Source: Patescibacteria group bacterium
GTDB taxonomy: Bacteria; Patescibacteriota; Patescibacteriia; UM-FILTER-42-10
Reading direction: 5' to 3'
DNA: 64,000 bases
NCBI GenBank assembly: GCA_041666845.1
Contig: JBAYGC010000003.1
Coordinates: forward strand, 25,007-89,006
Part shown: positions 1,373 through 32,250 of the stretch, one piece after another
How positions within the stretch are numbered: the first letter of the stretch is position 1
Layout of the letters: each line of letters opens with the position of its first letter
Program-made: the position numbers and the translations under genes
Notes under the pieces: model-generated
What the model saw: only the letters and a program-made list of their open reading frames with translations
What the model was told of the DNA's origin: nothing
The model's database searches: none

Positions 1373-1795
1373 TTATTTCAGTTCTTCCAGATAAGTTTTA
1401 ATAAAATTAGCGGTAGCCGTAATTGTTTCTGCTTTTGCCCCGCGCGGACTTTGTGCCACCCACATGGCAAAATTGTACAGTTCCGTATTATCCACCTTCA
1501 GCCACCTGTTGTTCATAAATAAGAAAGCCATCAATATTGTCATCGCTATTCTTTTATTGCCGTTTCTAAACGGATGATTCTTGATCAGTAAATAAAAAAG
1601 TACCGCCGCTTGCGTATTGATTCCTTTGTATAACGGCCTTTTGTTATATGTCTGAAAAGGCGTCTCCAAACAGCTCTCCAGGATATTGGGAAATCTGGTG
1701 GAAAATGCGGGTATCGGTTCATCATATGCCATCATTTCCTTCGCCAGTCTATAGGCGAGGTACTCTATTTCCATTAATGACAGTGTTTTGGTCAT
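1373..1795 (-). CDS. doc: Doc toxin (Fic/Doc family, death-on-curing type II toxin)
   Basis: Contains the Doc/Fic signature HPFRNGNKR (HxFx[DN][AG]NKR); ~140 aa, typical Doc length. Its ATG overlaps the TGA stop of the upstream HTH gene (ATGA at 1792-1795). Confidence 0.75.
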   Translation of the reverse strand: MTKTLSLMEIEYLAYRLAKEMMAYDEPIPAFSTRFPNILESCLETPFQTYNKRPLYKGINTQAAVLFYLLIKNHPFRNGNKRIAMTILMAFLFMNNRWLKVDNTELYNFAMWVAQSPRGAKAETITATANFIKTYLEELK

Positions 1796-2046
1796 GTGTT
1801 ACCAAGTAATCTTAATGTTTCACCATACTCTTTCACAACCTTCTTTACCGCTTTATTCACAACATCCTTTTCACTATCCTCTAAAGTATCTTTGAATACA
1901 CCCTTGAACTGATTTCTGCTTACCACAAAATTCCGGCCGATTTTTTCGGCCTTTATTTCACCCCTTTTGATCCGATTAAATACAGCTACCCGGCTAATCC
2001 CGAGCATTTCCGCAACTTCAGTAGTAGATAATAAGTCTTTATTCAT
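1792..2046 (-). CDS. HTH (excisionase/MerR-like helix-turn-helix) DNA-binding protein; putative antitoxin of the Doc module
   Basis: N-terminal motif TTEVAEMLGISRVAVFNRIKRGEIKAEKIGRNFVV is typical of HTH_17/excisionase-family binders. 84 aa, translationally coupled to doc. A palindromic operator sits just upstream. Confidence 0.6.
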   Translation of the reverse strand: MNKDLLSTTEVAEMLGISRVAVFNRIKRGEIKAEKIGRNFVVSRNQFKGVFKDTLEDSEKDVVNKAVKKVVKEYGETLRLLGNT

Positions 2047-3544: not shown

Positions 3545-3711
3545 TATTCATAATTAAAAAATCTGCGGTAATCACCACAGAAAAACAGCTTGTTTTGTAC
3601 CTCGGTAGGATTTACGGCCATTTTTGTGGCCACCTACTGTCTGTGGCGATATTTAGTTGTAATTCCCAGTTTACACTCTTAAAATAAATCGTCAAGTACC
3701 AATCAGGAAAT

Positions 3712-4395
3712 TTACCCGATTACCGTACCGGAAAACGGCTTTTTCTGCAAAAATCGTTTAAAGTTAGCCAAATTAGTGCCTTTCATCACCACCACCCGGA
3801 TCCCCGCTTTTTCTGCCCTCTTGGCAGCTACGGGATCAAACGGGGCGTTCATTCCCGGTACATATTTACCCCCGATTACTTTTTTGAACTCCTGCCAGGT
3901 CATCACTCCGATTCGCTTAGCGTCTTTGTATTTCCGGGGATCTTTGTCATAAACATGGGAAATATTGGAAAGATTGACCACGGTCTTGGCACCATACTGT
4001 TCCGCCAGAATCACCGCATCCAGATCGGAAGATGAGCCGGGTACATAGCCGGAGCCGATGATTATTTTCTTTTTGGTATTAATTTTCCGGTGGGGATTAT
4101 CTAATACTTTTTCGTAAGCCAGCGTGCCGAAGATTACCCTGATTAGTTCTGCATTCAACTTCGTGGCGGAGATTCCCAGCCAGTCCAGATTATCAGGAGA
4201 TACTTTAGTAACCTTTTCCGCGGCGGCGTTATATTTCCGGCAGACCTTCCCTCCTCCGGCTACAATAACGATCTTGGAATACTTGCTTTGATTTTTAATA
4301 ATCAGCTCACGGAATTTTTTCAGGAATACCCAGTTCACTTCATCAGGAACTATGATTGATCCGCCCAGGGAGATTATGACTGATTTTTTTTTCAT
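3712..4395 (-). CDS. pyrH: UMP kinase, archaeal-type amino-acid-kinase family
   Basis: 227 aa. Motifs VIISLGGSII..IVIVAGGGKVCRKY and GSGYVPGSSSDLDA match the glycine-rich loops of the aspartokinase/UMP-kinase fold. Confidence 0.6.
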   Translation of the reverse strand: MKKKSVIISLGGSIIVPDEVNWVFLKKFRELIIKNQSKYSKIVIVAGGGKVCRKYNAAAEKVTKVSPDNLDWLGISATKLNAELIRVIFGTLAYEKVLDNPHRKINTKKKIIIGSGYVPGSSSDLDAVILAEQYGAKTVVNLSNISHVYDKDPRKYKDAKRIGVMTWQEFKKVIGGKYVPGMNAPFDPVAAKRAEKAGIRVVVMKGTNLANFKRFLQKKPFSGTVIG

Positions 4396-21980: not shown

Positions 21981-22087
21981 AGGGTTATTTCTTATTAAAT
22001 GACACCTATCAGTATTGTAGCAGAATTATGATAATTTAAAAACCCGTGTTTCATGTGGATATTTTGATCCCCTATTCAGTAAACATG

Positions 22088-22209
22088 GATTGCAAGGAAA
22101 GAGGTATAGACCCGAAACCAAAAACAACCAGCATGCAAACAAAAAACCGATATTCTATCGGCTTAATGGGGTCCCCAAAAATCGCAAAGCGGTTTTTGGG
22201 GAAAGCAAT
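22088..22209 (+). repeat. tRNA-associated repeat (family RptA), partial copy 1, with hairpins CCGATATtctATCGG and CCCCAAAAAtcgcaaagcggTTTTTGGGG
   Basis: ~85% identical to 22270-22390 of copy 2 and to the 31.6-kb and 32.0-kb copies. Confidence 0.55.
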
Positions 22210-22224
22210 ATTTTGAAAATATTA

Positions 22225-22390
22225 CCGAGCAAATCAGGAGCGCATCCTGAGCAAAGGCGAAGGATAGCACGGATTTGCGAGGAAAGGGGCACAGACCCGC
22301 AACCAAAAAATTGTTTCAGAAATGAAAAAACCGAGTTATACTCGGTTTCATCGGGCCCCCAAAAATCGCAAAGCGGTTTTTGGGGAAAGC
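22225..22390 (+). repeat. tRNA-associated repeat RptA, copy 2 (full length, begins CCGAGCAAATCAGGAGCGCA)
   Basis: Shared blocks CCGAGCAAATCAGG.GC.CA, GGATTTGC, GGGGCCCCCAAAAA.CGCA.AGCGGTTTTTGGGGAAAG. Confidence 0.55.
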
Positions 22391-22547
22391 GGGATATTCG
22401 TGAAAGGTGAAATCCTGAATAATAATTCAGGATGGAACCTGAAACGAATAATCACGCGTGGTCGGGGTGGCGGGACTTGCCCGCCAAAGGCGGGTCCGCC
22501 TCTGGCGGAAACCCTTTATAACTAATGGAAATTTGAAATGTTTTGAT

Positions 22548-22623
22548 TGGTCGGGGTGATCAGACTTGAACTGACGACCTCATCGTCCCGAACGATGCGC
22601 GCTACCAACTGCGCCACACCCCG
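22548..22623 (-). tRNA. tRNA-Pro (anticodon CGG), CCA encoded
   Basis: Cloverleaf folded by hand: acceptor CGGGGTG/CACCCCG, D-arm GCGC-AGTTGGTA-GCGC, anticodon stem CATCG/CGATG with loop TTCGGGA, T-arm GGTCG..TTCAAGT..; 76 nt. Confidence 0.85.
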
Positions 22624-22658
22624 ATTATTAACAAAAACTTTTTTCGCCTAAGATGTAG

Positions 22659-22717
22659 CCAACTGCCCGTCCGCCACGGCTATCGCCGCAGGCGTGCCGG
22701 GCGGGCGCCACACCCCG
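22659..22717 (-). other. partial duplicate of tRNA-Pro nt 1-12 + 40-nt insert + CAGTTGG (D-loop) located ~35 nt upstream of the intact tRNA-Pro
   Basis: Minus-strand reading: CGGGGTGTGGCG-[cccgcccggcacgcctgcggcgatagccgtggcggacggg]-CAGTTGG. Same architecture as 55080-55139 next to tRNA-Lys. Confidence 0.5.
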
Positions 22718-22755
22718 TTATAGTTCATATATCTTACAGAATTTCACCAAATTAA

Positions 22756-23487
22756 TCAATTACCTCCGAATCTCCTATTACGCCGGCTATATTCCTCAAT
22801 CGCATCATCAATATCTTCTTCAGTAAATTCCGGCCACGTCTTGTTAATAAACATTAATTCACTATACGCGGATTGCCAAGTCAGAAATCCGGAAAGCCGA
22901 TACTCACCTGACGTTCTGATAATTAAATCCGGATCGGGCAGGTCTGATGAGAATAAATTTTTACTAATCAATTCCTCTGTAATTTGAGCTGGTTTCACTT
23001 TTTGCTTCACAATTTTCTTCACCGCTTCAGTTATCTCCGACCTGCCACCGTAGTTCAATGCAATATTTAAGATTCCACGCTTATTATTCTTTGTCAGATT
23101 TTCTGCTTTGTTGATTGCCTTCTTAATCTCTAAAGAAAGACCTTTTTCAATTCCAATCACTCTAATTTGTATACCTTTGGCATGTAGGCTTTTTGTCTCA
23201 TTTGAAAGCGCGTGTTTAAGGAGGCGCATTAGATATGCTACTTCTTTTTTTGTGCGATTCCAATTCTCTGTAGAAAAAGCATAAATTGTAAGAATATTCA
23301 CACCACGATCAAGACACCACTCTCCTACTTTCATTGCGATATCATATCCCCGCTTATGTCCTGCGAAGGTCGGCAACCCTTTCTTTTTAGACCACCTCCG
23401 ATTACCATCCATAATTATACCAATATGTTTTGGTATTATTCTTGTTTCATCGCCGGTTTTTAACGATTTTTTGGCCATATAAATCAA
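22756..23487 (-). CDS. uppS: undecaprenyl diphosphate synthase (isoprenyl transferase)
   Basis: HIGIIMDGNRRWSKKKG, ..LTIYAFSTENWNR.., ..RTSGEYRLSGFL.. UppS signature blocks. Confidence 0.85.
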   Translation of the reverse strand: MIYMAKKSLKTGDETRIIPKHIGIIMDGNRRWSKKKGLPTFAGHKRGYDIAMKVGEWCLDRGVNILTIYAFSTENWNRTKKEVAYLMRLLKHALSNETKSLHAKGIQIRVIGIEKGLSLEIKKAINKAENLTKNNKRGILNIALNYGGRSEITEAVKKIVKQKVKPAQITEELISKNLFSSDLPDPDLIIRTSGEYRLSGFLTWQSAYSELMFINKTWPEFTEEDIDDAIEEYSRRNRRFGGN

Positions 23488-23568
23488 AAACCCATTATTA
23501 TTTAGAATTATTTGCTTCTATATTCTAATATTTTTAGCAACTTTCGTCAATTGTACATAGTGATAGTT

Positions 23569-24135
23569 CTATTCGGAAAACTCGACTGTCTGATATGTAA
23601 AAATATCGGTATCTTTTTTCCAGGCATCAGTCGGAAGACCGGCTTTATGGCACAAACTAGAAAGAAACTCTTCCTTATCGTTGATTTCCTTCCAGACACT
23701 GGGTAAGAAAGTAGCGCTGAAGCCGTTCTTTTTCAGTACGATTCCATCTTTACCTAAATTGATTTTAGCCAACAGATCCTGATAATCATAATAAGAAAGT
23801 GGTTGCGGAACAGCAAGAATTGAAATATCTATTTGCGTTTTTTTCAGTTCATCTTCCGCAAGCGCTGGAAATCTCAAATCACGAAACGCCGCGGCATATG
23901 CCTTATCAATAATCTCCTCATACAGTGGTAACTCCGGCTCCAGACTGCCGATACAACCGCGCAAAACGCCATTTTGAGTAAGTGTGACAAAAGCCGCGCG
24001 CTTTCGCATTAAGTTTTCTGAAATTACCGTGGACACATTAATTGTCAATTTGTCATGATTCGCGAAATAGAATTCGATAGTGTCCCGGGCTAATCTAAGT
24101 AAAAACTTTTTTTCTTCACGAGTATATTTCTCCAT
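23569..24135 (-). CDS. AMMECR1-domain protein
   Basis: AAFVTL..NGVLRGCIGSLEP motif of the AMMECR1 family; start set to MEKYT (ORF extends to 24195). Confidence 0.65.
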   Translation of the reverse strand: MEKYTREEKKFLLRLARDTIEFYFANHDKLTINVSTVISENLMRKRAAFVTLTQNGVLRGCIGSLEPELPLYEEIIDKAYAAAFRDLRFPALAEDELKKTQIDISILAVPQPLSYYDYQDLLAKINLGKDGIVLKKNGFSATFLPSVWKEINDKEEFLSSLCHKAGLPTDAWKKDTDIFTYQTVEFSE

Positions 24136-24139
24136 ATTT

Positions 24140-25219
24140 CTATTGCCAAACCCCCTCAATATTATAACCACACTCGGAACATTTGCCCTGAACAATTTCC
24201 ATGTTTGTCACCGCATGCCAGTCTCTTGTGATGTTCACATGATTGCATTTCGGACAATATGTGCTCTGATGTTCACTGTCCGCAACATTACCGGTATAAA
24301 CATATTTCAAACCCGCACTTTTTCCTGCACGGTAAGCCCGCAATAATGAATCCGGCGGGGTTGGTGGTTTCTGATTCATTTTATAGTTGGGGGAAAAAGC
24401 TGTCACATGCCATGGAATGGAGTTACTGACATCGGCAATGAATTTTGCTATTGAATTTAGCTCCTCGTCTGAATCGTTTTCTTCAGGGATAATTAATGTG
24501 GTTATCTCAAGCCAAATACCCATATCATGTGCTCTTTTGATGGTCCTCAATACCGGATCCAAATGTGCCTTGCATGTTTTTCGGTAAAAATCATCATTGA
24601 AAGATTTTAAATCTATATTCATCGCATCAAGGTAGGGGTGAATTTTATTCATCGCCTCTTCCGACTCATAACCGTTAGAAACAAAAACATTCTTAATCCC
24701 CTCGGTATGAGCCAGTTTTGAAGTATCATACAAGTATTCAAAAAAAATCACCGGTTCGTTATAGGTATAGGCAATAGATGGAATTTTATGCTGCAAACAA
24801 TATTCTACAATTTTATGCGGAGGCAGATCTTGTCCATAATCAACCAGTTTTCCCAAGCGCAACATTCTTTCATCTTTGTCTTTTATTTTTTTCTGAACCT
24901 CTTTTGCCGATTGTGATAGATCCCAGTTCTGGCAAAAATCACAGGCAAAATTGCAACCGACCGTTCCTATTGAAAATATTTCTGTTCCCGGCAGAAAATG
25001 AAAAAGCGGTTTTTTCTCAACTGGATCAACATTTACTGCGGAAGCTTTACCATAAACCATCAGATATAAATCACCCTGGTAATTCATACGCACACCGCAA
25101 ATTCCCGTCCTGCCGTCAACAATCCGGCAGTAATGAGCACAGGCAGTACATTCTACCTGATTCTGGGGTAGTTTTGTGTAAAGCTTGGCTTTGCTTAATA
25201 CTATTTTATTTCTATGCAT
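24140..25219 (-). CDS. radical SAM enzyme (AmmeMemoRadiSam-system type)
   Basis: CNFACDFCQNW (Cx3Cx2C) radical-SAM cluster motif and an N-terminal Cys-rich segment (CTACAHYCRI..GICGVR). Adjacent to the AMMECR1 gene, as in the described AmmeMemoRadiSam trio. Start set to MHRNK (ORF extends to 25279). Confidence 0.65.
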   Translation of the reverse strand: MHRNKIVLSKAKLYTKLPQNQVECTACAHYCRIVDGRTGICGVRMNYQGDLYLMVYGKASAVNVDPVEKKPLFHFLPGTEIFSIGTVGCNFACDFCQNWDLSQSAKEVQKKIKDKDERMLRLGKLVDYGQDLPPHKIVEYCLQHKIPSIAYTYNEPVIFFEYLYDTSKLAHTEGIKNVFVSNGYESEEAMNKIHPYLDAMNIDLKSFNDDFYRKTCKAHLDPVLRTIKRAHDMGIWLEITTLIIPEENDSDEELNSIAKFIADVSNSIPWHVTAFSPNYKMNQKPPTPPDSLLRAYRAGKSAGLKYVYTGNVADSEHQSTYCPKCNHVNITRDWHAVTNMEIVQGKCSECGYNIEGVWQ

Positions 25220-25275
25220 ATTATTTGTCACTAAAACTATGATTCCATTGTATTTGTTAATTGAACATACCAAAA

Positions 25276-26244
25276 TCAAAATGTATGATAGCGGGCATTT
25301 ATTTCATCAAATACTGACTTGGAAACATCTTGAATTACTTTTTCCATCTCATTCACATCAGTCCCCTTAGTCATAACACAAAGAAGATATGGATGATTCG
25401 GATAATAGATTATCCCACAATCATGTAGCTGTTGGTCTTTATTATCCTGCTCCGATCTGATTCCGAATTTATTTGCAATAATCAAATCCGTAGGAAGATC
25501 ATTGGCGATCCCAGAATCATAATTTGCTCTGGCCAAAAGAGCAAGCGCTTTTTCAGAATATTCCCTGTTCAAATATGAAGCGTTGTATAAAACCCTGAAC
25601 AATGATGAATACTGTTTAACTGTTATATAGTCATCAGCCAAATTTTCTTCGGGATATGGGATATCCATGACGTCATGCATTAAACGTATTTCATCAAAAT
25701 CAACAACATTTGATAATAAATCAAATGCGTAATTCTCTGAATTGATGATCATTTTTTCTATCAGCGCCTCAACCGTTTCACCGGCTTCTGAACCCTCCGG
25801 TACTAATACCAGCGAAAGAAATGTCGGATCTGTTTCTGCTTTTTTATACAGCGCAATCATCATCGGAACTTTTAATAGACTGGCTGGAGCAAAAAGAGTA
25901 TCCTGATTCACGCCATACCAGGGACCGTTATTCAGATTCCGATAATAGACAGAAATATCATGTATTGATTCTGTTTCTAATTTAACTTTTGTCATATTAG
26001 TGACAGTATTTTCCAAAGAAATAATTTCTTTATTCTGTAACCCATCTTCCGATTCGCATTCTAAAAGCGGGCTGATATACTGATATCCGCTCTGCCTGAT
26101 CTCCTGCGATTCCTTATTCTTGCCAAAAAATAAATATGAAATGCTAAAACCAATCACCCCACCGATCAATAGGAATACAAAAAGAGTAATAAAAACCTTT
26201 TTAGTGTTGATTTCCCTATATTCTTTGTTGGCAATTTCATTCAT
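25276..26244 (-). CDS. membrane-anchored serine-hydrolase (class A beta-lactamase/transpeptidase-like fold)
   Basis: SxxK (ASLLK), SxN-like (SEN) and K[TS]G-like (TKGT) motifs in the right order; N-terminal TM. Confidence 0.4.
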   Translation of the reverse strand: MNEIANKEYREINTKKVFITLFVFLLIGGVIGFSISYLFFGKNKESQEIRQSGYQYISPLLECESEDGLQNKEIISLENTVTNMTKVKLETESIHDISVYYRNLNNGPWYGVNQDTLFAPASLLKVPMMIALYKKAETDPTFLSLVLVPEGSEAGETVEALIEKMIINSENYAFDLLSNVVDFDEIRLMHDVMDIPYPEENLADDYITVKQYSSLFRVLYNASYLNREYSEKALALLARANYDSGIANDLPTDLIIANKFGIRSEQDNKDQQLHDCGIIYYPNHPYLLCVMTKGTDVNEMEKVIQDVSKSVFDEINARYHTF

Positions 26245-26341
26245 ATTTTCCTATTTCTATTATATTATACTGTTTTGTCAAAATAACGTCCAATCAAAAA
26301 CCCCTCGCATTTGAGGGGTCTTTATGATAATTACAATGAAA

Positions 26342-27430
26342 TTATAACGTATGGCTCATACACACAGCATAATCATTCGTCTGACTCCAAGCTGACTGGG
26401 GAATTATTGCATGGATACAACCCGGGCCGAATTTAATTTCCTTCTGTATTTCTACTTCAGAATATCCGCCATAAACTCTGCCATATGCCAAAACCAGCGA
26501 CCACGTTGCATCAATCCCCTTTCCGATACTAGTTAAATAATCCCCGACCCATTCCATCTGATTCCGTTCCTGCGAAAGTGTACCCACAGTTCTCCTGATA
26601 TTATATCGGTAACGGGAAGCGTTTAAGAGATAGCGGTATTCACCACCCTGATACCCGGACTCAATTGCCCGGTCAACATCAGTTTCGTCGGTAACTAGTT
26701 TGATAGAAATATCGGAATTATAATTACTTTCAGAAACAATTAAATTATCCAGATATAGTTTTCCTTCACTGATTTCCATTGCACTATTATATTCAGGAAC
26801 GGTAAATTCAATATATTTATTTGTCCAATCAGTTATCTCAAATTCATAACCGGAGTCTAGTTTTGATGCCGTATATTCATCTGAACCAAGACGGGCGATC
26901 TGACCGATCAAATCATCCGGGCCGTTACCAAGGCCTGTTCCATACAGTCTTACGGTATCGCCCGGCATCACATAGGTCTTATCTACAGATGTAAATCTGG
27001 CAGTTGTATTAACAGTGCTTGATTTATATACCACACTTTCTATTCTATCCAATGAAGCAACATAATCAAGATAACCAGATAGATTAGACCCCTTATATTT
27101 GATCCAAAACTGATAATCTGTTCCCTCGCTAAGTCCTATCATATCCCTACAATATTTTGTATCAGAAATTTTTTCATCTCCCCCTAATGAAAGTATAACA
27201 ATATAATCATCTGATAATAGATCACCATGACTAGTTTGAAATTGAGGATACGATGCATCTAGATCTTCAACAACATCTGCAATTGTCCAACATAATCTGA
27301 TTGAATTACTAGTCGTTTCATCCGTGTAGATATTAGTGACAAACTGTTCTGCCGCATTTGCCCGAGGAACAAAAAATAATAAACTAAAAAACACAATTAC
27401 CCCGATTGAGATAAGTAATTTACCTTTCAT
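26342..27430 (-). CDS. secreted hypothetical protein (signal peptide)
   Basis: N-terminal MKGKLLISIGVIVFFSLLFFVPRANA signal; followed by terminator CCCCTCaaatgcGAGGGG+T5 at ~26300-26330. Confidence 0.4.
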   Translation of the reverse strand: MKGKLLISIGVIVFFSLLFFVPRANAAEQFVTNIYTDETTSNSIRLCWTIADVVEDLDASYPQFQTSHGDLLSDDYIVILSLGGDEKISDTKYCRDMIGLSEGTDYQFWIKYKGSNLSGYLDYVASLDRIESVVYKSSTVNTTARFTSVDKTYVMPGDTVRLYGTGLGNGPDDLIGQIARLGSDEYTASKLDSGYEFEITDWTNKYIEFTVPEYNSAMEISEGKLYLDNLIVSESNYNSDISIKLVTDETDVDRAIESGYQGGEYRYLLNASRYRYNIRRTVGTLSQERNQMEWVGDYLTSIGKGIDATWSLVLAYGRVYGGYSEVEIQKEIKFGPGCIHAIIPQSAWSQTNDYAVCMSHTL

Positions 27431-27502
27431 AAGCTACTTTGTTTAATATTTAAACTAATAATCTACCTACAAATCATATCATATTTAAACAGCAACCCAA
27501 AA

Positions 27503-28009
27503 CTAACTGCTTAACTGCCCTTCCAGTATATGAACAGCGGGTGCCGGGTTACCGTCATCTGGTTCCAATGTCAATATAAAATAATCATGGTCCGTTAAAT
27601 CCTGATCTGCACTGAATGTATTCTGATACACATCATTTTCTTTAATCACTTTGCCGGTACTAATAAAGTTCTGGGGCGCATTAATAACGATCCAGCCCTC
27701 ATAATAATCAGTTCCTTCCGGGTCGGGGAGATTCTCAAAGGTTGCCGACAAATTGTATTCACCATTTTCAAAGTTTGCTTTTGCTTCACCAAAACCCGTT
27801 CCCCCACTGATATCAGTGAGTAATCCTGTAAATTTATAAAGCATTTCAACTGCAGTATTTGTATATACATGTTGGACAGTATCAGTATTTGCATTTGAAA
27901 CATTTAATATTGATTCTTCTTTCGGATCATTGCTAATAAATACCCAAGTCAATCCGCTTATAATAATTACCGTGATTGCTACAATAAATATTTTTATGTT
28001 TGAATGCAT
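27503..28009 (-). CDS. secreted/membrane-anchored hypothetical protein
   Basis: N-terminal hydrophobic anchor; 168 aa. Confidence 0.35.
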   Translation of the reverse strand: MHSNIKIFIVAITVIIISGLTWVFISNDPKEESILNVSNANTDTVQHVYTNTAVEMLYKFTGLLTDISGGTGFGEAKANFENGEYNLSATFENLPDPEGTDYYEGWIVINAPQNFISTGKVIKENDVYQNTFSADQDLTDHDYFILTLEPDDGNPAPAVHILEGQLSS

Positions 28010-28037
28010 CTATCGCAAAATTAATAGTTATTATTTG

Positions 28038-29120
28038 CTAAAACCACTTCTTTCTTTTAAAGTAAGCAACCATAGATACGGCAGTAATAATGATGACGAT
28101 CCACACCCCGTGATAACCGTAATGCCAATTAAGCTCCGGCAAATTGCGGAAATTCATGCCGTAAACACCCACTAAAAAAGTTAGCGGGATAAATATAGTG
28201 GAAATGACAGTTAGCACCTTCATAATCGCATTCATCCGGTTGCTGATGCTTGATAAATATATATCAACCATGCCGGACAATACATCGCGATAGGATTCAA
28301 TCGCTTCAATCGCCTGAATAGTATGATCATAAATATCACGGATATAAGGGCGGGTGGTACTTTTTATCAAAGATATTTCCTCACGTTCAAAACGGTTAAC
28401 TACGTCACGGAGTGGCCAGAGCGACCTACGGAGCAACATTGAGTCCTGCTTAATCTTATTCAATTTGTGCAGAGTCTCAGACGTCGGATTTGAAAGTAAT
28501 TCTTCTTCTATTGTTTCAATTCTATTCCCCAATTCTTCCAAAACCGTAAAATAATTGTCGACAATCGCATCCAATAGTTCATATATCAGATAATCACAAC
28601 CCGTTGATCTGATTCTCTTTCCGCCTTCTTTTATATTATTTCTGATAAAACCAAAAACGTCGCCCTCTGTTTCTTGAAATGTCGCCACCAATTCATTTTT
28701 GAATACGAAACTCACCTGCTCAGCATGAATCTCTTTATTGGAATCAAGAATAAACATTTTTACTACAATAAAAATTGTTTCATCATTCAATTCATATTTC
28801 GGGCGCTGGCGGGTATGTAAAACATCCTGAACCAGTAAATGATTCAGTTCAAATTCCTGGCCGATTTTGTTTATTTTTTGTACATCACGCAATCCAGTTA
28901 CATTAATCCAATTGCAGTATTTACTTTTAATAGAAGTATCAAGTTTTTCCAAATCCTCAACATATTCTTGAAAATAGTTTTCCTCATTATAAGAAATCAA
29001 CTCGACCTTAGTTTGAGTTGTTTCCTCATGCGGATGCGCAATCAAAACCCCCTCCGCGTGATCTGACTTTTTTATTGATCTCTGAAAAAATTTGGTTGGC
29101 GATATTTGTGATAATTTCAT
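28038..29120 (-). CDS. corA: magnesium/cobalt transporter CorA
   Basis: C-terminal two TM helices with the YGMNF (GMN) signature; 360 aa. Confidence 0.85.
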   Translation of the reverse strand: MKLSQISPTKFFQRSIKKSDHAEGVLIAHPHEETTQTKVELISYNEENYFQEYVEDLEKLDTSIKSKYCNWINVTGLRDVQKINKIGQEFELNHLLVQDVLHTRQRPKYELNDETIFIVVKMFILDSNKEIHAEQVSFVFKNELVATFQETEGDVFGFIRNNIKEGGKRIRSTGCDYLIYELLDAIVDNYFTVLEELGNRIETIEEELLSNPTSETLHKLNKIKQDSMLLRRSLWPLRDVVNRFEREEISLIKSTTRPYIRDIYDHTIQAIEAIESYRDVLSGMVDIYLSSISNRMNAIMKVLTVISTIFIPLTFLVGVYGMNFRNLPELNWHYGYHGVWIVIIITAVSMVAYFKRKKWF

Positions 29121-29280
29121 AAAACAATATTATTATTTACTATTATTTCACTATATATCTATTATACACCATTAATCGCATACTAAAAAACGAGATTTAC
29201 CTTGCTTTAAACCATTAAAAACCGAAAAACTAGGAAGTATTAACATTCCGGATAAGGAATAATCCTTGGTTCAAAATTAA

Positions 29281-31182
29281 TTATGTATTATAGGGGATTA
29301 TTGGTGGCTCGTATATTCTAGGAACCTTCTGCTTTAAATCACAATATTCGTTCACAAAGCCGTCACAGTCATCGTCGTATGGGGTGATGCATAATTCTCT
29401 GGCACCCGGGTTTACAGAACTCAAAGTATCGTCACAATCCGGTCCTAAAGTACAATCTGATCCATAACCGTCTAAATCATTGTCAACACAATGTTTTTCA
29501 TCAATCTGCCAATCACAATCATCGTCTAAATTATTATCTAATTCCGCAGCTCCCGGATAAACGTTAGCAGGATTTATGTAGTTACAGCTTAATGGCGCGA
29601 TTTTCCCTATGTTTATATCGTGATTTTCATCTATATCCACCCGCTTAAAATAAATATTACCCATCGAAACATAAGCAATAATGTCGAAGCCATCGCTGAT
29701 GTGCAACATTTCAGTGGCATACATATATGGGTCGGCAAGATCGATATTTCTCGATGCGGACCAACTTCCAGATTCAAGATCAGTCGTGTAGCTATATTTG
29801 ATCGAATCAACAGTCTGGTCTGGGCCGGAAGTCCAAACTAAATAGTAATAGTCATCTTTTTTGAAAATATGAGCCGACTCTGCCTTACCTCTGCCACCGG
29901 TAACACTTATCGGACCTAAATCTGTCCAGTCAATTAAATTACTTGATTTAGCTAAACCGATAACCATTTGATAAGTAAACGGGGTTGGCACAGTAGAATA
30001 AACCATATAGTAATATCCGTCATCATCCTTGAATACAAAGGGGTCTCTACATTGGTGACGCCAATCCCCTGATTCACCCCAGGCTGTCCAACTCAGATTA
30101 CAATCCCAGACACAACCATCACCAGTTGAATCATCACAATTATTGATCGGGTATCTGGTCCAAGTATTCAGATCTGAGGATGTCGCAATGCCGATTCTTT
30201 CCTTGTGCTCAGCCGGATCCGGAAGCGCATCAGTCACTCCGGTATAGAACATATAATACTTGTTGTCTTGATTATTATAAACAACTGATGGCGCCCAGAC
30301 ATGCTGATTATCCCAACCACCGCTAGTGGCAATGTTCAAAATCCCGGTTGCACTATTCCAATAATTCAGATTATTTCCTGATGCTTTTTGATAACCAAAG
30401 TCCATTGAATTAGCAGCGCAGGTTTGCCATAACGCACAACCAATCTCAGGGAATCTTATGTAATAACTATGTAAATAATTAGTCATACTATCATAATAAA
30501 TGGCAAAATCTTGAGCAAGATAACTTGGCGGGTTAAGCAAAAATGAGTTGTATGTCGAACAATATTCACCATTTAAAGAATTATAAAATTCTTTAGTATC
30601 ATTACAGTCCTGGCCAGGATCTGAATTATAACTTACAGGTAAACTGCCATTGGTACAAAGCTCAGAAGAGATATTAGTAGAAAAACCATCACCGTCCAAT
30701 TCGGAATAACCGATCATACTATACCAAGCAGAACTATCATAGTCATTACAGTCGTCGCCAATTTCTGCTGAATATCCAGAAGGCAAATCTTCACCAGAAC
30801 AAATATTTGTTAATAACTCAGTTGAAGAATAGTGACTGTCGCTATCTCTGTCCGGAAAACCAATCAAGATTCTCCAGATTTCTGGGTTAGCATCATCACA
30901 ATCATTACCATCATATAAACAACCATTGATTATGCCGCTATAAGGATATTCCCCGCGACCATCTCCATCCAGATCATCACACAAGACTGAAACTGACAAT
31001 TGCTCATTTAATATATTATTATCAGAAATACAGATATTAACTGCAGGGGTAGTCACATTTATTTCTGGATTTACAATTGCCAAAGCAAAGCCAGCAAAAT
31101 AAAAAATCGCCAACATCAAGGCGACAAAAACTGAAGTCCTCATCCATAAATTAATATAGTTTATATCTTTATATTTATTCAT
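29281..31182 (-). CDS. secreted protein with MopE-like Cys/Asp metal-binding motifs flanking a 5-bladed beta-propeller glycoside-hydrolase-like domain (GH43/GH32 clan-like)
   Basis: Signal/TM; repeats D-C-D-D-x-N-P-x-x-W / DGDG-x-G; WAPSVVY..YYMFYTGV, RDPFVFKDDDGYYYMVYST blocks reminiscent of GH-J/F propellers. Confidence 0.4.
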   Translation of the reverse strand: MNKYKDINYINLWMRTSVFVALMLAIFYFAGFALAIVNPEINVTTPAVNICISDNNILNEQLSVSVLCDDLDGDGRGEYPYSGIINGCLYDGNDCDDANPEIWRILIGFPDRDSDSHYSSTELLTNICSGEDLPSGYSAEIGDDCNDYDSSAWYSMIGYSELDGDGFSTNISSELCTNGSLPVSYNSDPGQDCNDTKEFYNSLNGEYCSTYNSFLLNPPSYLAQDFAIYYDSMTNYLHSYYIRFPEIGCALWQTCAANSMDFGYQKASGNNLNYWNSATGILNIATSGGWDNQHVWAPSVVYNNQDNKYYMFYTGVTDALPDPAEHKERIGIATSSDLNTWTRYPINNCDDSTGDGCVWDCNLSWTAWGESGDWRHQCRDPFVFKDDDGYYYMVYSTVPTPFTYQMVIGLAKSSNLIDWTDLGPISVTGGRGKAESAHIFKKDDYYYLVWTSGPDQTVDSIKYSYTTDLESGSWSASRNIDLADPYMYATEMLHISDGFDIIAYVSMGNIYFKRVDIDENHDINIGKIAPLSCNYINPANVYPGAAELDNNLDDDCDWQIDEKHCVDNDLDGYGSDCTLGPDCDDTLSSVNPGARELCITPYDDDCDGFVNEYCDLKQKVPRIYEPPIIPYNT

Positions 31183-31248
31183 GTTAATAAACTGGCCAGA
31201 TTATTTTAATCAACATTATTTTTGAACCAGCACATTTTACAAATGCTC

Positions 31249-31322
31249 TGGCGGGGGTGGAAGGTATCGAACCCTCGTCTCAGGTTTTGGAGACCTACAT
31301 TCTACCATTGAACTACACCCCC
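31249..31322 (-). tRNA. tRNA-Trp (anticodon CCA)
   Basis: GGGGGTG-TA-GTTC-AATGGTA-GAAT-G-TAGGT-CTCCAAA-ACCTG-AGAC-GAGGG-TTCGATA-CCTTC-CACCCCC-G-CCA; 74 nt. Confidence 0.85.
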
Positions 31323-31419
31323 ATTAGCCAAATTTTATTTTCTCTAAGTAACTGGGAAATGAAGTAATTCGGATTCTACCATTGCCACCGCCTTCGGCGG
31401 AAACGACACCCCCAACATT

Positions 31420-31551
31420 CTATTTGGTTTCCTTATGGACAGTATGTTTTTTGCACCATTTGCAATGCTTCTTGATCTCAAGTCTTTCCTTAAGAGTTTT
31501 TTTGTTCTTTTTGGAATGATAATTAATGCGCTTGCATTCTGTACATTCCAT
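31420..31551 (-). CDS. rpmG: 50S ribosomal protein L33 (43 aa)
   Basis: Translates to [43 protein letters not shown]; matches the L33 consensus (ECTECK..NY...KN.....LEL.KYC..C.KHT.HKE.K). Below the ORF-track length cut-off. Confidence 0.8.
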
Positions 31552-31619
31552 TTTTATTAGATTATCTTGTGACATCTGTATTTTCTAATATGATTAATTA
31601 ATTTATATATGAAGATCTA

Positions 31620-31736
31620 CCGAGCAAATCAGGAGCGCACCCAGGCAGTTGCGAAGCAAATGCATCGGGGAGCACAGATTTGCAAAGAATAATGGGGCCC
31701 CCAAAAAACGCACAGCGGTTTTTGGGGAAAGGGGCA
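31620..31736 (+). repeat. tRNA-associated repeat RptA, copy 3 (between tRNA-Thr(UGU) and the rpmG promoter)
   Basis: CCGAGCAAATCAGGAGCGCACCCAGGCAGTTGCgaaGCAAaTGCatcggggagcacagatttgcaaag..GGGGCCCCCAAAAAAcgcacagcggTTTTTGGGGAAAGGGGCA. Confidence 0.55.
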
Positions 31737-31801
31737 CAAATGCGGAAGGCGGAGTGAATGCAAATTTTGCATGCACGTAGCCTGAAGCATTTGATGACCC
31801 G

Positions 31802-31876
31802 TGGAGCCGAGAAGAGGATTCGAACCCCCGACCTGCTGTTTACAAAACAGCTGCTCTACCACTGAGCTATCTCGGC
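31802..31876 (-). tRNA. tRNA-Thr (anticodon UGU)
   Basis: GCCGAGA-TA-GCTC-AGTGGTA-GAGC-A-GCTGT-TTTGTAA-ACAGC-..TTCGAAT..-TCTCGGC-T-CCA; 75 nt. Confidence 0.8.
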
Positions 31877-31924
31877 ATCATTGGCGGGCAAAACAGATGC
31901 TCTGCCAGCTGAACTAGGTGGTCA

Positions 31925-32010
31925 TGGTGGGCCGGGAGGGATTCGAACCCCCGAAGGCTAAAGCCAACAGATTTACAGTCTGTCCCGTTTGACCGCTTCG
32001 GTACCGACCC
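31925..32010 (-). tRNA. tRNA-Tyr (anticodon GUA), long variable arm
   Basis: 86 nt; anticodon stem ACAGA/TCTGT with loop CTGTAAA; variable arm TTGGCTTTAGCCTTC; T-loop TTCGAAT; acceptor GGGTCGG/CCGGCCC. Confidence 0.8.
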
Positions 32011-32034
32011 ATGCATAGTTTTAACGAACCCAAA

Positions 32035-32151
32035 CCGAGCAAATCAGGGGCACACCCGGGCAGTTGCGAAGCAACTGCATCGGGGAGCACGGATTTCAAA
32101 ACAATAATGGAGCCCCCAAAAATCGCACAGCGGTTTTTGGGGAAAGGGGCA
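32035..32151 (+). repeat. tRNA-associated repeat RptA, copy 4 (between tRNA-Thr(GGU) and tRNA-Tyr); contains perfect hairpin GCAGTTGC-gaa-GCAACTGC (32061-32079)
   Basis: CCGAGCAAATCAGGGGCACACCCGGGCAGTTGCGAAGCAACTGCATCGGGGAGCACGGATTTCAAAACAATAATGGAGCCCCCAAAAATCGCACAGCGGTTTTTGGGGAAAGGGGCA. Confidence 0.55.
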
Positions 32152-32174
32152 TCCCGCTGAGCGGGAATGACCCG

Positions 32175-32250
32175 TGGAGCCCACCATCGGATTTGAACCG
32201 ATGACCTTTCCCTTACCATGGGAGTGCTCTACCAGCTGAGCTAGGTGGGC
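32175..32250 (-). tRNA. tRNA-Thr (anticodon GGU)
   Basis: GCCCACC-TA-GCTC-AGCTGGTA-GAGC-A-CTCCC-ATGGTAA-GGGAA-AGGTC-ATCGG-TTCAAAT-CCGAT-GGTGGGC-T-CCA; 76 nt. Confidence 0.85.

Follow-up and report, generated by a model that had tools for sequence, protein, structure and literature searches.

Processing stems and intervening sequences (IVS) are removed by RNase III in bacterial rRNA maturation, and multi-copy imperfect palindromes such as REP/BIME, ERIC, the Neisseria Correia elements and the Rickettsia RPEs include some that are RNase III substrates. These REP-type families are restricted to a genus or family, consist of near-identical copies and often carry terminal repeats or target duplications. 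Integron attC sites combine R''-L''...L'-R' boxes and a GTTRRRY core with arrays of open reading frame (ORF) cassettes and IntI. HDV (hepatitis delta virus)-like theta ribozymes are found immediately downstream of phage tRNAs (PMC10879173). Here, we analyse a structured repeat element that abuts tRNA ends in a 64,000-nt stretch of DNA from a Patescibacteria group bacterium (the window; assembly GCA_041666845.1, contig JBAYGC010000003.1, positions 25,007 to 89,006), and that an earlier note had reported as a four-copy family next to tRNA genes. We tentatively read it as a cis-acting structured leader or trailer module of stable-RNA precursors that is removed during their processing.

Coordinates are those of the window; the motif sense, which is the window plus strand, is termed R and its complement E. 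The A/T-clamped hairpin CCCCAAAAA-N11-TTTTTGGGG, which we call the shell, occurs at exactly four sites, on the plus strand only (22173, 22357, 31699 and 32114), with 0.11 matches expected from shuffles and none of 100 shuffles reaching 8. The block CCGAGCAAATCAGG occurs at three sites (22225, 31620 and 32035; 0.33 expected), and a repeat search recovers the same families, including a 118-nt pair at 31619-31736 and 32034-32151 with 92% identity. The window repeats are far above chance level, and all blocks of the earlier note are present where it had placed them. A covariance model, R1, built from 19 canonical copies of the family and run with filters off, gave seven matches in the window, all on the plus strand and all within the four copies; core hairpins score 49.4, 28.5 and 26.1 bits and shell hairpins 28.2, 26.6, 22.6 and 20.7 bits. 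Nothing elsewhere in the window exceeds 15 bits, and there is no match near tRNA-Glu, tRNA-Lys or tRNA-Trp.

The canonical element spans ~130-190 nt and consists of a distal hairpin P1, a purine-rich linker GGGAAGAGGRGCA and a proximal hairpin P2 of ~70 nt. P1 combines an A/U-clamped outer stem with an invariant purine-rich internal-loop core (AAAUCAGGAGCGCA...GAGCACGGAUUU) and a freely varying apical hairpin, reading in the R sense 5'-(A/U-rich)GGGNN-CCCAAAAAUC-AGGA-GC-GCA-(variable hairpin)-(C)GA-GC-ACG-GAUUUUUGGG, followed by AAGAGGRGCA, a P2 with symmetric purine loops (GNA/GNA or GNAA/GNAA) and finally UUGACCCG or UUGCGAC-3'. Counting non-canonical pairs, P1 measures ~22 bp and P2 ~25-28 bp; the outer stem of P1 reads AAAAAUC...GAUUUUU in both senses. 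The P1 core that defines the R1 family, AAAUCAGGNGCNCA...(G)AGCACGGAUUU within an A/U-clamped outer stem, is present in the window copies. Some 26 core positions are invariant across distant classes of the Candidate Phyla Radiation (CPR), and copies within one genome differ by compensatory changes. Across 44 copies aligned to R1, 96% of P1 cells are paired, compared with 24-55% in slid controls, and 138 cells carry double changes versus 34 ± 6 in column shuffles, none of 500 of which reach the observed value. In P2 of the subfamily found 3' of tRNAs (trailer type; alignment A4, of which window copy B is a row), compensatory changes occur in 20 of the 23 predicted pairs, and the closing helix of the subfamily found 5' of stable RNAs (leader type), G-GA-GCAAC / GUUGC-GA-C with its tandem G.A, covaries too.

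Four copies of this element, all in R sense on the plus strand, make up the window loci. Copy A (32034-32174) lies between tRNA-Thr(ggt) and tRNA-Tyr, as the 3' trailer of tRNA-Thr(ggt) on the minus-strand transcript, and comprises a core hairpin (32041-32096), a shell hairpin (32113-32142), the linker GGGGAAAGGGGCA (32139-32151) and, on the tRNA side, a shortened P2 hairpin (32152-32166) and a terminal ATGACCCG (32167-32174) set against TGG (anti-CCA) at 32175; it matches R1 at 26.1 and 28.2 bits. Copy B (31619-31801; 28.5 and 26.6 bits), between tRNA-Thr(tgt) and rpmG, has a core hairpin (31624-31683), a shell hairpin (31698-31727), a linker (31724-31737) and a P2 (31733-31801) that ends in the same octamer directly before TGG at 31802. 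Copy C (22215-22458) holds the best match in the window (49.4 bits, E = 3e-12), with a full canonical P1 (22215-22298; ACCGAGC-AAATCAGGAGCGCA-hairpin-AGCACGGATTT-GCGAGG), a decayed P2 remnant, a minus-strand terminator (22327-22349), a shell hairpin (22356-22385) and a P2 (22388-22458) ending ...AATCACGCG before TGG at 22459. Copy D (22084-22213), a partial tandem copy, retains the 3' half of a decayed P1 with the linker, a minus-strand terminator (22144-22164) and a shell hairpin (22172-22201); it matches R1 at 20.7 bits over 22163-22213 and appears as repeat family D10 in the repeat search.

In the direction of the minus-strand genes, copies A (32174 to 32034) and B (31801 to 31619) begin one nucleotide past the CCA of tRNA-Thr(ggt) and tRNA-Thr(tgt), respectively, and the tandem pair C and D (22458 to 22084) comes after a tRNA-Pro 3' fragment (22525 to 22459), so that all four are of the downstream, inverted (trailer) type. 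The positions given in the earlier note hold, but its bounds were too short, the elements extending to tRNA ends at 31801, 32174 and 22458. Its statement that each copy directly follows a tRNA and a conserved trailer is borne out for A and B, both of whose trailers begin CGGGTCAT after the CCA, but the 22-kb pair follows the tRNA-Pro fragment, and the trailer there is CGCGTGAT. A perfect hairpin GCAGTTGC-gaa-GCAACTGC, listed as a shared block, is found in the copy at 32035, but it has a mismatch in the copy at 31620 and gives way to a different hairpin in the copy at 22225. The 22-kb pair is indeed tandem and does carry extra hairpins, but these are minus-strand intrinsic terminators (22349-22327 and 22164-22144).

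The window form is a derived one, in which the core hairpin and the A/T-clamped shell correspond to the two halves of one canonical hairpin. In the window lineage the core occupies its own hairpin (ACCGAGC-AAAUC...GAUUU-GCGAGG) and the A/U-clamped shell, with a short filler, has turned into another hairpin; the undivided two-domain form persists in a relative (L081). Copy B of another relative, L149 (L149_B), lacks the core, and window copy A lacks most of a P2 that is kept in its ortholog in L141. Orthologous positions are retained in relatives while hairpin sequences are swapped wholesale, for example in L001.

Searches of the whole window against Rfam 15 at gathering thresholds returned only tRNAs and an L10 leader, excluding RNase P, signal recognition particle (SRP) RNA, tmRNA and 6S RNA as the earlier note had judged by eye. 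At E <= 10, the two repeat regions gave nothing credible, the best match being AS-pc01 (39.7 bits versus a gathering score of 79), which falls on a terminator-like stretch of copy C. Canonical copies from other genomes also matched no Rfam family, including at E <= 10, and literature searches found no description of the motif; the family is apparently undescribed. What the earlier note took for a local family of four copies extends throughout the Patescibacteria, as seen both by pattern scan and by covariance model. With one genome taken per species, a search for a pattern based on the best-conserved block (AAATCYGTGCT-N8-38-GCNCCTGATTT) located 48 loci; ~24 are true homologues and ~24 were rejected as chance matches. 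The true homologues belong to Saccharibacteria, Doudna-, Kerfeld- and Peribacteria and unclassified Patescibacteria metagenome-assembled genomes (MAGs); two are labelled only 'bacterium', and one lies on a 2.4-kb contig binned as Gammaproteobacteria. A metagenome scan added ~30 further distinct copies, most raw matches having been dropped as chance or as a Lachnospiraceae sequence, and the pattern had no match in viral contigs. A single genome, DAIMCS01 (~0.7 Mb, two contigs), has seven pattern matches and more by the model, amounting to at least 7-9 copies. On the sequences scanned, the family is restricted to Patescibacteria (CPR) genomes and metagenomes.

The position of the element relative to stable RNAs is highly regular. 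The closing helix GGGGCA.../...UGACCC of P2 lies against the stable-RNA end, ~51-67 nt past the P1 match (58 nt in copy B). In copy A the tRNA edge is only 16 nt past the P1 match because P2 is shortened, the P2 of its ortholog L141_A being full-length, and the P2 end of copy C adjoins the tRNA-Pro 3' fragment. With ARAGORN run on all loci (51 copies) and distances counted from the P1 match, the tRNA edge falls at 51-67 nt, that is one P2 length, in 24 copies: 14 are same-strand 5' edges, with R as a 5' leader ending 0-2 nt before +1, and 10 are opposite-strand 3' edges, with E as a 3' trailer starting 1 nt after the CCA. A further 11 copies have a tRNA at 146-379 nt, which is accounted for by tandem arrays, an inserted gene, or an unannotated tRNA or fragment at the junction. 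Most of the copies outside the 24 adjoin tRNA fragments, 5S rRNA or a 16S exon; R lies 57 nt before the 5' end of the 5S rRNA gene in L031, and 60 nt before 16S rRNA exon 2, at the 3' end of a group I intron, in L115. Two tRNAs carry both a leader and a trailer copy (in L042 and L087). Abutment of the P2 end on a stable-RNA end is a strict rule of the family with few stand-alone exceptions. Copies elsewhere keep the tRNA association, and covariation and placement together support the structured repeat family tied to tRNA genes that the earlier note had proposed.

In the Met1-Met2 spacer of Saccharibacteria, the element is either the Met1 trailer or the Met2 leader (Met1-E...Met2 in some genomes and Met1...R-Met2 in related ones), and P1 faces the middle of the spacer in both. 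In this cluster (L005, L006, L086 and L102; for example at ~6780-6800 in L006), an inverted copy of the junction between tRNA-Met 3' end and element start, TCGCAACCACGGACCAAC, lies beyond the P1 end, so that inverted repeats of ~18 bp enclose the element; close by is a conserved terminator, AAAATCGTGACAGATTTTACCCTCTGTCGAGGG. The 16S gene of L115 (10467-12516, minus strand) is a CPR gene with a group I intron near E. coli position 516/517, and the final ~170 nt of this insertion are the flank element, whose terminal G immediately precedes exon 2 (CCAGCAGC). In L004 (~1725-1810, plus strand), a tRNA-like 3' end (T-arm GTAGGTTCGAATCCTAC, acceptor strand and CCA) that ARAGORN does not call stands directly before the element and fills the tRNA-Gly slot of the classical Thr-Tyr-Gly-Thr cluster.

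Leader-type and trailer-type copies differ in their transcription context. Strong sigma70-like promoters precede leader-type copies, with the -10 ending 24-40 nt upstream of the core (TTGCCA-17-TAAAAT twice, TTGATA-17-TAAAAT, TTGAAA-17-TAAAAT twice and TCGACA-18-TAAAAT). On the R strand, trailer-type copies lack promoters of this kind, their upstream neighbour being either a terminator or another antisense tRNA at a distance of 7-40 nt; read on the tRNA strand, canonical intrinsic terminators come after them (L042, L130 and window copies C and D). This context indicates that leader-type copies, with a promoter ahead on the same strand, are transcribed as R, and that trailer-type copies, all four in the window included, are transcribed as E within tRNA precursors, where they form a 3' trailer or a spacer between tRNAs. 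The minus strand of the window would therefore yield two precursors, Thr-A-Tyr-Thr-B-rpmG and Pro-Pro 3' fragment-C-D. Stand-alone arrays (L018, L061 and L078/L155) have a promoter-like site of their own, and an R-strand intrinsic terminator comes straight after their P2. This terminator (L018 ~4170-4230; also L155 and L061) is followed by a conserved ATCGTGGATAACTCGG with a near-consensus DnaA-box-like TGGATAA. The strand of the element shows no consistent relation to GC skew or gene strand, on which ground a replication-linked function as single-stranded DNA was rejected.

These arrangements suggest how a processing module could work. The two irregular helices, each of about two turns, would fold by themselves beside the mature end and, being self-contained, would keep flank sequence from disturbing tRNA folding. 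They may also be where an RNase III-type endonuclease, specific for double strands or for structure, enters the precursor, after which RNase P at the 5' side and an endo- or exonuclease at the 3' side would complete the ends. In the window, the module would part Thr, Tyr and Thr from one another as well as from the mRNA for L33. The analysis shows that the copies belong to the family, how they fold, where they are placed and which promoters and terminators surround them; cleavage of the element, the enzyme responsible and cleavage as its purpose are what we infer here; the lengths of P1 and P2 fit the RNase III substrate criterion of at least 20 bp of largely double-stranded RNA, and cleavage itself is a prediction of this model.

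Several observations weigh against a processing module. In the window lineage, modules have been lost without obvious consequence (P2 in copy A, the core in L149_B), and the stand-alone arrays have their own promoter and terminator with no adjacent stable RNA. At the invariant internal-loop positions, leader and trailer RNA carry complements of one another and not the same nucleotides, so that one sequence-specific RNA-binding factor could not read both. Additionally, the structure itself is biased towards the R sense: loops are purine-rich in R, and predicted folding energy is lower for R in ~30 of 31 copies. Among the non-Watson-Crick cells of P1 helices, G.U outnumber A.C (23 versus 8 overall), as do G.A/A.G over C.U (14 versus 2) in copies assigned to a placement class, and the same bias holds in trailer-type copies (G.U 14 versus A.C 5, G.A 11 versus C.U 1), counts that come from phylogenetically non-independent copies; a separate G.U count over whole elements is not significant. 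Purine loops, folding energy and mismatch types led us to drop E, the tRNA sense, as the motif sense. It is this conflict, between the structural bias towards R and the transcription of trailer-type copies as E, that chiefly keeps our confidence in a processing module modest.

Compared with rRNA processing stems and IVS, the family is alike in placing what appear to be co-transcribed, double-stranded flanks against mature ends, with inverted sequences, at the DNA level, on both sides of a gene. In the full L042 precursor, the leader P1 is predicted to pair long-range with the trailer P1' (cofold -135 versus -116 kcal/mol for separate folds), whereas the leader-trailer cofold of L087 shows almost no gain. 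Unlike rRNA stems, the flanks usually fold separately as two hairpins, border tRNAs and 5S rather than 16S/23S rRNA, and contain an internal-loop core that is invariant across the superphylum. Theta ribozymes (PMC10879173) similarly start right after a tRNA 3' end and are placed to define it, but the fold here is two sequential, covariation-supported hairpins and not a nested double pseudoknot whose P1 starts at the cleavage site, half of the copies are found on the upstream side of tRNAs and in the opposite sense, and viral contigs contain no match. Like REP/BIME, ERIC, Correia and RPE elements, the copies are transcribed intergenic palindromes that occur in either orientation, including tandem and decayed copies; unlike those families, they span CPR classes with a frozen core, compensatory variation and a strict rule for the P2 end. 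By eye, the outer arms of P1 (YYYAAAAA / TTTTTRRR), its unpaired central bases, its bulges and its variable terminal hairpin resemble a folded attC site, but cassette arrays, a nearby integrase and a GTTRRRY core are all absent, and the element is tied to tRNA ends rather than to ORF cassettes.

Alternatively, the product could be a discrete small RNA in R sense, probably part of a ribonucleoprotein, whose gene would lie beside tRNAs to let RNase P generate the 3' end of the RNA where both are on one strand, and which in the window would be antisense to the tRNA trailers. The stand-alone loci argue for this, each an R array between a promoter and an R-strand terminator, as do the leader-type copies, which begin a few nucleotides past a strong promoter and which RNase P would set free. 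The GNA/GNA, GNAA/GNAA and AGGA loops are purine-rich only in R sense, which together with the folding energies and the mismatch types in both placement classes points the same way, although the whole-element G.U asymmetry lacks significance. In the Saccharibacteria Met cluster, the inverted tRNA 3' end and a promoter-like site upstream of R could close an R transcript. About half of the copies, all four window ones among them, however run convergently to the tRNA, and no promoter can be recognised for them. In many cases another antisense tRNA is 7-25 nt away or the copy comes right after a terminator, and an R transcript would enter the antisense tRNA directly, with no terminator between. 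Copies C and D, moreover, hold opposite-strand terminators inside the element. We regard a small-RNA gene as unlikely.

We also doubt that the family is a selfish palindromic repeat of the MITE (miniature inverted-repeat transposable element), REP, RPE, IVS or retro-mobile type, gathered at tRNA and rRNA borders where insertions are harmless and removed by normal processing, its mirror orientation reflecting recognition of palindromic acceptor-stem ends. Such an origin would suit the multiple, tandem and decayed copies, the mirrored occupation of both tRNA sides, the shifting position among related genomes seen at Met1-Met2, the tRNA end fragments beside many copies, the copy within a 16S group I intron and the loss of modules in close relatives. 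The invariant core positions and the compensatory differences between same-genome copies, as in DAIMCS01, disfavour recent transposition, because recently transposed copies would be near-identical. Leader-type and trailer-type copies also form distinct, long-diverged subfamilies, no terminal inverted repeats or target-site duplications were noticed, the viral contigs gave no match, and the clustered neighbour ORFs include no recurrent transposase, integrase or reverse transcriptase.

A single neighbour recurs, a gene for a small GIY-YIG nuclease, which immediately precedes tRNAs in 9 of 44 loci. Its place with respect to the element varies, and three loci (L011, L069 and L150) have it between R and the tRNA. 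The ORFs (Pfam PF01541, E = 1e-16) are at 6310-6564 in L006, 1902-2099 in L011, 1658-1870 in L069 and 4186-4383 in L081, with others in L102, L135, L150, L153 and L163. In L011 and L069, a duplicated tRNA 5' fragment stands ahead of the ORF, next to R, and in L081 the ORF is upstream of tRNA-Tyr; the tRNA-Tyr of the window has none. These genes look like a mobile, tRNA-targeting homing-endonuclease cassette, which probably explains the scattered tRNA fragments at these loci and does not explain the element.

An extension of the processing module to a superphylum-wide end-module system seems to us improbable. One frozen sequence, serving in sense as 5' leader and in antisense as 3' trailer, would form perfect duplexes of ~24-27 bp, within or between transcripts and with stand-alone R RNAs, that direct the endonucleolytic release of tRNA, 5S and rRNA-exon ends; if true, such maturation by end-module duplexes would be unlike the RNase E, RNase Z or exonuclease routes of model bacteria. 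As a universal mechanism, leader-trailer pairing was rejected, since it is predicted for L042 but hardly for L087 and is contradicted by copy-specific compensatory changes in the outer stem; it is retained only within this end-module reading. A second novel reading, also improbable in our view, is an element that propagates by way of RNA and attaches itself to the ends of abundant stable RNAs.

We consider it very unlikely that P1, GC-rich and A5/U5-clamped, is a terminator or attenuator that would end tRNA transcripts when placed behind the tRNA and attenuate them when placed ahead of it: the clamped hairpin does resemble a bidirectional intrinsic terminator, and the sole weak Rfam match, AS-pc01, is to a terminator-like region, but a scan for intrinsic terminators, in which a GC-rich stem runs straight into a U-tract on the transcribed strand, called no P1 or shell hairpin and nothing in A or B, finding only the inserted minus-strand hairpins of C and D; trailer-type copies in L042 and L130 have separate canonical terminators after them, leader-type copies sit between promoter and tRNA, copies A and B lie inside an apparently polycistronic tRNA-rpmG unit with no room for new promoters, and invariant internal loops are atypical of terminators. 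Among the functions listed in the earlier note, which made no choice between them, the proposed reading as a co-transcribed flank or processing module fits best; the element is not a canonical terminator, and evidence for mobility is weak. Compared by eye, the core fits no K-turn, loop E/sarcin-ricin motif, SRP domain IV, C/D or H/ACA guide, T-box, boxA, Y RNA/Ro site, CsrA sponge or group II domain V. An HDV-like fold with GGGUCAA as its P1 finds no partner for its P2, the intervening region being a self-contained hairpin, and neither the window regions nor the canonical copies match HDV, hatchet, pistol, twister or hammerhead ribozymes in Rfam even at E <= 10.

The window contains seven tRNA genes, all on the minus strand, and the copies lie in two gene orders, tsf - TPR protein - tRNA-Thr - A - tRNA-Tyr - tRNA-Thr - B - rpmG and uppS - tRNA-Pro - fragment - C - D - ORF. 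The encoded CCA of tRNA-Thr(ggt) (32175-32250) adjoins copy A, that of tRNA-Thr(tgt) (31802-31876) adjoins copy B, and 24 nt separate tRNA-Tyr(gta) (31925-32010) from the P1 end of copy A, which is upstream of it. Copy B is directly followed, on the minus strand, by rpmG, for ribosomal protein L33 (31420-31599, minus strand; called ORF 31420-31575), identified by the Pfam Ribosomal_L33 domain on record for this exact protein, which is encoded identically on a contig of the 'Patescibacteria group bacterium' MAG GCA_041666485.1 (L001). The stretch 31576-31599 is in-frame and 100% conserved in L001, where the gene call uses a later ATG, and the true start of rpmG is probably near 31599, at a conserved in-frame upstream ATG.

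The tRNA-Pro 3' fragment (approximately 22459-22525, minus strand; repeat D5) begins 22 nt downstream of the intact tRNA-Pro(cgg) (22548-22623), between it and copy C, and consists of a T-arm-like hairpin, an acceptor 3' strand and CCA, with GC-rich hairpins. Neither ARAGORN nor Rfam calls it as a tRNA; it recurs in L001, where its first hairpin shows a compensatory change. On the other side, ~25 nt upstream of tRNA-Pro, its first ~13 nt and D-loop are copied at 22650-22722 (minus strand; CGGGGTGTGGCGC...CAGTTGGCTAC), interrupted by a 39-nt GC-rich hairpin, and this fragment is absent from L001. A tRNA-Trp 5' fragment (~31360-31412, minus strand; GGGGGTGT...AATGGTAGAAT) with an inserted GC hairpin, CCGCCGAAGGCGG, lies between rpmG and the intact tRNA-Trp; the same fragment in L001 has different and larger hairpin insertions, indicating that the fragment is kept and the insert variable. 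The rplJ region is adjacent to tRNA-Trp/rpmG in many bacteria. In the window, the ribosomal protein L10 leader (Rfam RF00557, 57.9 bits, 3547-3664, minus strand) puts ~18 kb between the rplJ region and the tRNA-Pro locus, and ~28 kb between it and tRNA-Trp/rpmG.

CPR bacteria, or Patescibacteria, account for a large share of bacterial diversity and have tiny genomes with reduced repertoires of RNases and ribosome-biogenesis factors; to our knowledge, almost nothing is known of how they mature their tRNAs and rRNAs. A genome of ~1 Mb holds many copies of the element, whose conservation reaches from Saccharibacteria to Kerfeld-, Doudna- and Peribacteria, and its invariant core positions, strong covariation and strict abutting rule make it unlikely to be neutral. 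If it is a processing module, it would give a direct experimental handle on CPR RNA maturation, since some Saccharibacteria can be cultivated; were it instead a stand-alone RNA or a mobile element, it would represent a new lineage-specific RNA class. It would also serve as a marker for CPR contigs and tRNA-gene boundaries, and in either case the family is a candidate for Rfam.

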